Source of the DNA: a virus
Lineage: Duplodnaviria; Heunggongvirae; Uroviricota; Caudoviricetes
DNA length: 7,631 nucleotides
Reading direction: 5' to 3' (one strand)
Virus record (IMG/VR): IMGVR_UViG_2711768008_000002
A program made the position numbers. Below are positions 6,001 through 7,631 of the stretch, piece by piece (position 1 is the stretch's first letter; every line of letters begins with the position of its first letter).

Positions 6001-7631
6001 GACTCCGGCCCGGTATGCCGATTCGATGGCCTCCCAGTCCGGTTTTGCCATGATTATGCTTCCTGTGATTTACTGTTATCGCTGCCTGTCACAATAGGTT
6101 GCTTTAATTCTTCCTCATCACTCACTCCTGCGACGCTCCGTGGCAGGGCCCCCCACAGGAGTACCTTGTAAATGTAAGGTGTTTAAGCCTAAATTAAGTC
6201 GTATCACGGTTAAATAGCAAAGAAAAATTCACAGAAGGAAAGACATTGATGGAGTGGATAAATGCTTTGATGAACTATTTTGTACTTCATCCATATCGCC
6301 TATGGGGGCTTCTTTTTATAATAGCGTTCACAAAATCCACTTTACTCATTTCGGCGATATTGCCACCAGCATCAATTATGATGGCCACTGTAATTACAGT
6401 CAGCAAGACGACTCTTTCACCATGGGAAGCTGGAATCACGGTCATGAGTGGCGCATGGTGCGGTACTATCGTTAATTACCATCTTGGTATAATAATTGGG
6501 CATATCCCTCAACTTGCATGTATAATATCAAGCCGTTCCAATACAATAGAACGGGTTCGCCTTCAGTTGCAAAATAACTCTGTGTCAATACTTTTCACTT
6601 CGCGCTTTATCGCCGTGCTGCGTTATATTGCTCCTTTGGTGGCAGGAATGTTGCAACTTCATCCAGTGAAAGTGTATACAGTGAGTCTGATTTCAGCTGC
6701 TAGCTGGTCAGCACTTTATGTTGGTAGTTTTAGCTTCGTGTTGCCTTTTTTTAGCTAAACTGCCCATAAAAAGCTCTTGCGAATCCAGCTTCCCCCATTC
6801 CTCTGACAACAGAATCTGATTTGAAGGATAATGAGTAAAATTACCGCTACCCCCCAAGGCATTGGATCCTGATGTACTCCTGAAGCATTCTCAATGCTGT
6901 CTGGTCGCTGATGATTCCGTCCCGGATACCGAGAACGTTTCGTCCAGCAACTGGAGAGAGTTCGACGGTGGCATCATTGCCCATGCCGGAGGCGCTGGAG
7001 GTTTCGGCTGAGGATGGCACAGAGCATTTTCCTTTGACGAGCACCCGACCACCATTATCAAGCTTGCGCCGAAGAGCATCATTTTCAGCTTTCGCATCAG
7101 CNNNNNNNNNNNNNNNNNNNNNNNNNNNNNNNNNNNNNNNNNNNNNNNNNNNNNNNNNNNNNNNNNNNNNNNNNNNNNNNNNNNNNNNNNNNNNNNNNNN
7201 NNNNNNNNNNNNNNNNNNNNNNNNNNNNNNNNNNNNNNNNNNNNNNNNNNNNNNNNNNNNNNNNNNNNNNNNNNNNNNNNNNNNNNNNNNNNNNNNNNNN
7301 NNNNNNNNNNNNNNNNNNNNNNNNNNNNNNNNNNNNNNNNNNNNNNNNNNNNNNNNNNNNNNNNNNNNNNNNNNNNNNNNNNNNNNNNNNNNNNNNNNNN
7401 NNNNNNNNNNNNNNNNNNNNNNNNACCATCGTTACCACCTGGGCCAGTGATTAACACAGATGCTATAGCAACAGCCCCGCCACCAATAGCAACTGCAACA
7501 GCCTTGCGTAATGATGGCGACATTATTCACCTCTCGCAGCCTTACTAGACTGGCCCCCTGAATCTCCAGACAACCAGTATCACTTAAATAAGTGATAGTC
7601 TTAATACTAGTTTTTAGACTAGTCATTGGAG

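Follow-up and report, generated by a model that had tools for sequence, protein, structure and literature searches.

The last 86 nucleotides of the window, by which we mean the whole 7,631-nt stretch of viral DNA analysed here, are almost certainly the left end (positions 1-86) of one copy of IS2, a member of the IS3 family, that inserted into a prophage holin gene with duplication of the pentanucleotide CTTAC. In alignments, positions 7546-7631 are identical to the left ends of two IS2 copies, one inside a porin gene and the other inside a terminase gene. The 108 bases beyond the start codon at 7523 recur at 20,770 places, spread over 4,678 of the 5,426 complete E. coli genomes, which is the signature of a mobile repeat; copies of this stretch number a median of 3 and a maximum of 41 per E. 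coli genome. The sequences flanking the copies differ (porin, terminase and holin), and the stretch is thus multicopy at unrelated sites, as is expected of an insertion sequence. The first annotated match leads, 6 nt past its end, into a coding sequence with programmed frameshift that RefSeq names 'IS3-like element IS2 family transposase', and an Rfam scan of the window returned no match. An earlier note on this DNA had described the symmetric elements of this region as prophage regulatory DNA upstream of an open reading frame beginning at 7523; they are instead the terminal 86 bp of IS2 within the 3' end of the holin gene.

The breakpoint was placed to the base by alignment with two IS2 copies and with an otherwise nearly identical, uninterrupted prophage from E. 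coli FDAARGOS_944 (L003). Native prophage sequence ends at 7545: the window follows the uninterrupted prophage up to ...GCAGCCTTAC and, from TAGACTGG at 7546 onward, follows the IS2 left ends. Holin-endolysin sequence is continuous at this point in L003, and the alignment of phage genome records to the query stops at 7545, in features that they annotate 'endolysin | holin'. The exact holin-IS2 junction was absent from the contigs of one genome per species and from all complete E. coli genomes of the collection, where the best matches were other IS2 sites whose flank is fortuitously similar. A scan of viral contigs recovered the junction twice, in the IMG/VR contigs L005 and L006.

The transposase genes, the right inverted repeat (IRR) and the second CTTAC lie outside the window and are visible only in these two contigs. 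Each carries a complete IS2 of 1,331 bp, running from TAGACTGG... to ...GGGGCAAATCCA. CTTAC stands at both ends of the element in L005 and L006 and as a single copy in the empty site of L003, as a 5-bp target duplication would leave it. The termini form imperfect inverted repeats, the left one (IRL) within the window and the 41-bp IRR, ending ...GGGGCAAATCCA, in L005 and L006 only. The A6G frameshift motif AAAAAAG occupies IS position 409 in both contigs; in L005 it joins, by a -1 frameshift, two overlapping reading frames, an orfA with a helix-turn-helix (Pfam HTH_Tnp_1, E=1.8e-19) and an orfB with a DDE/rve domain (rve, E=3e-19, plus rve_3 and HTH_21). Every defining feature of IS2 open to testing is present, several of them only in the junction-sharing contigs. 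A complete element predicts the order ...AACAGATGATTGATGTCTTAGGG, 1,331 bp of IS2 and then CTTACGCTTATC past 7631; the window ends at IS2 position 86, and the source genome may conceivably hold a truncated IS2 remnant.

The empty-site comparison refutes the alternative that the cluster is a prophage operator and promoter, bound by a CI/Cro- or TetR-like dimer and controlling the minus-strand frame at 7523 and perhaps the DedA-family gene. Dyad symmetry, the outer hexamers TATCAC/GTGATA and a weak TTAAGA-17-GATACT are all present, but the uninterrupted prophage has no such sequence, its holin coding sequence passing straight into the endolysin start, and the stretch at which phage genomes cease to match is a multicopy mobile element. 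The lambda operators (OR/OL, bound by CI/Cro) have in common with this site the dyad symmetry, the overlap with a promoter and the outer hexamers, which are the start of the consensus half-site. However, lambda operators are 17 bp long with N5 between the hexamers, come as triplets and belong to the immunity region, whereas here a single 20-bp site with N8 spacing occupies a transposon end in the lysis region. The likeness to lambda half-sites is therefore coincidental, and a lambda-type CI/Cro operator was rejected given the N8 spacing, the location inside IS2 in the lysis module and the absence from the intact prophage. The hexamers of the minus-strand promoter proposed in the earlier note (7604..7599 and 7581..7576) do exist, but they agree with only 8/12 consensus positions and fail the promoter scan, and a half-site at 6202 is within chance (see below). 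Taken with these points, the probability of a prophage operator is negligible, and the literature assigns the DNA not to a prophage CI/Cro/TetR-type regulator but to IS2's own OrfA/InsA and transposase.

The left end of IS2, with its IRL, promoter PIRL, OrfA site and junction-promoter -10 box, is already known and has been dissected experimentally since the 1990s. Functional assignments in Table 1 rest on Lewis et al. 2012 (PMC3299598) and Lewis et al. 2011 (PMC3219604), whose coordinates were mapped with IS2 position 1 at window position 7546. The 42-bp IRL and the 41-bp IRR each consist of an outer cleavage domain and an inner protein-binding domain, and IRL terminates in TA, not CA, which lets TAGACT act as the -10 box of a strong minicircle junction promoter (PMC3299598, PMC3219604). 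Immediately inward of IRL is PIRL, a weak extended -10 promoter whose first four bases, TGAT, are base pairs 48-51 (PMC3299598, PMC3219604). The 14-kDa OrfA (InsA) is a repressor bound just upstream of PIRL, according to Hu et al. 1994 as cited in PMC3299598. The latter gives the OrfA docking site as TAAATAA, with residues 39-48 protected, and shows the same residues 39-48 protected by OrfAB-GFP itself (PMC3299598).

Table 1. Features of the IS2 left end and of the adjoining prophage DNA, in window coordinates.
Feature	Position	Strand	Basis or remark
SAR endolysin start (RrrD-like lysozyme), first 33 codons	7426..7523	-	100% identical to L003 6514-6612 and L005 3074-3172
Stranded 3' holin remnant, ..K-A-A-R-G-E and TAA stop overlapping the endolysin ATG	7523..7545	-	23 nt
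CTTAC, left copy of the 5-bp target-site duplication	7541..7545	.	Doubled in L005/L006, single in L003; only the left copy is inside the window
IS2 positions 1-86	7546..7631	+	Identity to IS2 left ends at unrelated sites; window stops inside the element
IRL, 42-bp left inverted repeat, begins TAGACTGG	7546..7587	+	41/42 versus published oligonucleotide (PMC3219604)
TAGACT, -10 box of junction promoter Pjunc	7546-7551	+	PMC3299598, PMC3219604
Palindrome TATCACTTAAATAAGTGATA, 9+2+9 nt	7578..7597	.	Arms 7578-7586 and 7589-7597
Protected residues 39-48, TTAAATAAGT	7584..7593	+	Mapped from PMC3299598; identical to published sequence
TAAATAA, reported OrfA/InsA docking site	7585-7591	+	PMC3299598
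PIRL, weak extended -10 promoter TGATAGTCT, drives orfA/orfAB rightwards	7593..7601	+	Literature; PMC3219604 oligonucleotide agrees
Region from PIRL to orfA (promoter-proximal DNA, presumed leader)	7602..7631	+	Two ACTAGT, GGAG
Shine-Dalgarno GGAG, ahead of orfA	7628-7631	+	
orfA ATG, reading MIDVLGPEKRRRR...	would fall at 7637	+	Extrapolated beyond window end 7631

All 86 bases within the window match the IS2 left end, and the protected residues, the extended -10 box TGATAGTCT, the leader and the Shine-Dalgarno sequence are the same here. Positions 7584-7601 are identical to the published OrfA-site/PIRL sequence, and the sole IRL mismatch to the published oligonucleotide is A>G at position 32. 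Relative to the known IS2 left end, this copy is functionally alike and represents a minor sequence variant, with G at position 32 and an AA palindrome centre. A sigma-70 promoter and terminator scan of 7426-7631 on both strands gave no match; PIRL escaped it because such a simple scan has no model for extended -10 promoters.

Based on the published footprinting, OrfAB transposase would bind the inner part of IRL, and OrfA/InsA, which shares the N-terminal helix-turn-helix of the transposase, would bind at or around the palindrome centre. Bound OrfA would thereby repress PIRL, which starts within the right arm and reads orfA-orfB rightwards. When the element circularises, the terminal TAGACT would become the -10 box of the strong junction promoter. 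The ends of IS911 and IS30 share with IS2 the bipartite inverted repeats, a weak resident IRL promoter, a strong circle junction promoter and a protein that has its N-terminal helix-turn-helix in common with the transposase. IS911 OrfA is not a promoter repressor, in contrast to IS2 OrfA and a truncated IS30 protein (PMC3299598). The suggestion that the palindrome is an operator for a dimeric regulator and overlaps a promoter was thus sound as to kind, the literature placing a small helix-turn-helix repressor there (PMC3299598), but not as to owner, direction or target: the documented promoter, PIRL, faces rightwards into IS2 and away from the frame at 7523.

The 20-bp element is unique in the 7.6-kb window: no other inverted repeat has arms of 9 nt or more separated by 12 nt or less. 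It had been described as a perfect palindrome; its position is confirmed and both 9-nt arms are perfect, but the reverse complement of TATCACTTAAATAAGTGATA differs at the two central bases, which are a non-symmetric AA. Its left arm coincides with the inner end of IRL, and IRR closes at its own inner end with the same TATCACTTA(A). A third copy of TATCACTTA, inverted and placed 2 bp further in, makes up the right arm and overlaps the TG of the PIRL extended -10 box.

To follow this arrangement beyond the window, we compared the left ends of 80 loci that encode OrfA relatives (82-100% identical). In 14 distinct IS2-like sequences of this region, 91% of cells retain the 9-pair dyad; sliding the partner arm by 1-3 columns lowers the figure to 26-50%. 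At two dyad positions both sides have changed in a compensatory manner, in each case in Aeromonas elements. In these (L085 and L086, with OrfA 82% identical), the arms read CCTCTTAA-C-TTAAGAGG, are perfectly symmetric and lie ~35-51 nt from the IS terminus, and the inner end of IRR is altered in parallel, to CCCGCTTAG. The pattern fits, with modest support from a covariation confined to the single Aeromonas lineage, one helix-turn-helix common to OrfA and OrfAB that would read all three half-sites.

The two central bases behave differently from the arms: among relatives the centre is A/T-rich but variable, whereas the arms are conserved. At 7587-7588, the 63 near-identical IS2 copies sampled (L007-L069) have either AA (24) or TT (39), and the TT-centre form is the exact reverse complement of the 20-mer in the window. 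The commonest sampled variant has this mirror-image TT centre, and the combination found in the window, G at IS position 32 with an AA centre, is the rarest (5/63 near-identical copies). In most of the diverged relatives the first of the two central bases is A (five of them have AG, the others AA), which makes TT look derived. By comparison of sequences, the TT centre would have arisen when the short segment between the 9-nt arms was inverted, perhaps through a hairpin or template switching.

These observations point, tentatively, to a refinement of the published docking site, in which IS2 OrfA would recognise the outer arms as a symmetric dimer instead of the asymmetric TAAATAA, with the AA/TT states related by a tiny inversion and maybe tuning PIRL repression. 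Recognition of symmetric arms is suggested by the mirror-image AA and TT states, by the variable centre between conserved arms and by the joint change of arms and IRR in Aeromonas. We consider this possible but doubtful. Alternatively, the palindrome could comprise the transposase-binding inner IRL plus a fortuitous inverted copy, in which case there would be no separate operator and PIRL repression would be a side effect of transposase binding. Protection of residues 39-48 by OrfAB-GFP itself (PMC3299598) and the identity of the left arm to the inner end of IRR are consistent with that explanation. However, the right arm lies outside IRL and yet is conserved, it co-varies with the left arm in the Aeromonas elements, and both OrfA binding and repression are reported at the site (PMC3299598, citing Hu et al. 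1994), which together make a fortuitous copy improbable.

Repeated CTAG motifs flank the palindrome. ACTAGT occurs at 7606-7611 and 7618-7623 and CTAG at 7545, 7607 and 7619, as the earlier note had reported, and with three CTAG in 75 nt and only 6 in the window (14.8 +/- 3.7 expected from dinucleotide shuffles), the cluster is real. The CTAG at 7545-7548 was created by the insertion junction, from the last native C (7545) and the TAG of IS2. Both ACTAGT probably lie in the 5' leader of orfA, before the ribosome-binding site; PMC3219604 mentions one SpeI (ACTAGT) site beyond the promoter. The 29-nt sequence TAGTCTTAATACTAGTTTTTAGACTAGTC is kept exactly in 9/17 diverged IS2-like loci (L070-L086). 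Positions 7596-7621 also form an imperfect dyad of 26 bp, TAGTCTTAATACT / AGTTTTTAGACTA, in which the PIRL -10 TAGTCT pairs with a downstream AGACTA; the whole stretch is exact in 9/17 diverged IS2-like loci. Within it, TAGACT at 7615-7620 repeats the terminal TAGACT of the element.

On the prophage side, the insertion target is a lambdoid prophage with a pinholin-type holin. The intact holin of L003 has 71 aa, is of the class II P21 S-type (Pfam Phage_holin_2_1, E=1.5e-35) and ends ...EDKRKAARGE*; IS2 lies inside the Arg codon preceding the final K-A-A-R-G-E. On the far side of the element in L005, the holin frame enters IRR and acquires 28 IS-encoded residues in place of its last five, AARGE. 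The 210-aa frame at 7523 (6891-7523) is an artefact, as are other open reading frames read through the run of N at 7102-7424; what can be read of it, 7426-7523, encodes the N-terminus of a SAR endolysin. Relatives carry an equivalent gene under the annotation lysozyme RrrD, and the full 165-aa endolysin of L005 matches Pfam Phage_lysozyme (E=1e-43). The run of N spans 323 nt, and L003 and L005 have 611 nt there, comprising the Rz N-terminus and most of the endolysin; it is either a gap or mask not true to length or a 288-nt deletion in the source.

Lying 22 bp ahead of the endolysin start codon, the insertion leaves the endolysin ribosome-binding site and ATG intact, but 1.3 kb of IS2 now part the endolysin and spanin genes from the late promoter. 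The effect of IS2 on the prophage is disruptive, the holin being truncated and the endolysin and spanin genes cut off from their late promoter. A late transcript would read IS2 in antisense, and we infer the consequences for endolysin and spanin expression from this layout. It can also be envisaged that the left end of IS2 serves as a mobile outward promoter whose leftward transcription would express the SAR endolysin and spanin independently of the late promoter and holin. The minus-strand hexamers have a 17-bp spacer, the endolysin translation signals survive so close to the IS end, and promoter-like signatures are enriched at IS3-family ends, of which at least about a quarter are predicted to have outward promoters (PMC12095673). 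Nevertheless, the hexamers remain below the scan threshold, an outward promoter in the IS2 IRL is unreported in the literature examined, and OrfA or transposase bound there would presumably block it. We therefore regard an outward promoter as quite unlikely. No element of the IS2 end has a regulatory role for the prophage endolysin or the DedA gene.

The lysis module has further features. Positions 6847-7101 (minus strand) encode the C-terminal part of the Rz i-spanin, with the gene of the Rz1 o-spanin lipoprotein embedded in another frame (MRKLKMMLFGASLIMVVGCSS...); relatives annotate this stretch 'lysis protein'. The holin start region of L005 is also mutated, at 4690-4720, from MYQMEKIST... 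to ...YVSDGKIST. Further upstream in L005, an ORF pair at 5301-6505 is presumably IS911. The state of L005 suggests that repeated IS insertion is eroding the lysis module, as is typical of Shigella-like genomes, and the IS2 insertion is one further step in the decay of an IS-riddled prophage of the Shigella/E. coli type.

The same factor had been proposed to act at a half-element in front of the DedA gene. The sequence, TATCACGGTTAAATA at 6202-6216, is indeed present, and the exact post-hoc pattern is rare, but it has no second arm, and the best gapped local match of the 20-mer to native DNA scores 11, a value reached or exceeded in 62/300 first-order Markov resamples. The sequence upstream of the DedA gene also occurs unaltered in prophages free of the IS2 insertion, whose native DNA is 99.8% identical here. 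A second regulator site at 6202 was rejected on these three grounds. A remnant IS2 end at 6202 was rejected as well, as similarity of the 86-nt IS2 segment to native DNA was within chance (matched or exceeded in 99/100 resamples). Co-regulation of the DedA gene with the palindrome has no basis. The gene itself (6246-6758, plus strand) encodes a DedA-family membrane protein and lies on the opposite strand between Rz and an ORF at 5287-6051 (annotated hypothetical) that adjoins the terminase large-subunit gene. It is annotated in 5 of the best 15 records among 1,913 matching E. coli genomes, the other ten being listed without it, and is a moron-like insertion.

IS2 with 95-100% OrfA identity also appeared in six assemblies (L044, L047, L052, L070, L071 and L073). 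Those labelled Streptosporangium, Paenisporosarcina, Lamprocystis and Brevibacterium carry it on contigs of 558-1,543 nt; two MAGs, one of Collinsella and one of Geobacteraceae, have it on contigs of 5,072 and 14,609 nt. Contamination from E. coli or a cloning host is the most likely source in all six.

For annotation, the lesson is that a transposon end would deceive any scan reading 7546-7631 as a prophage operator. If OrfA does recognise the symmetric arms, the AA/TT switch might tune repression of PIRL and, through it, how often IS2 subfamilies transpose in Shigella and E. coli.
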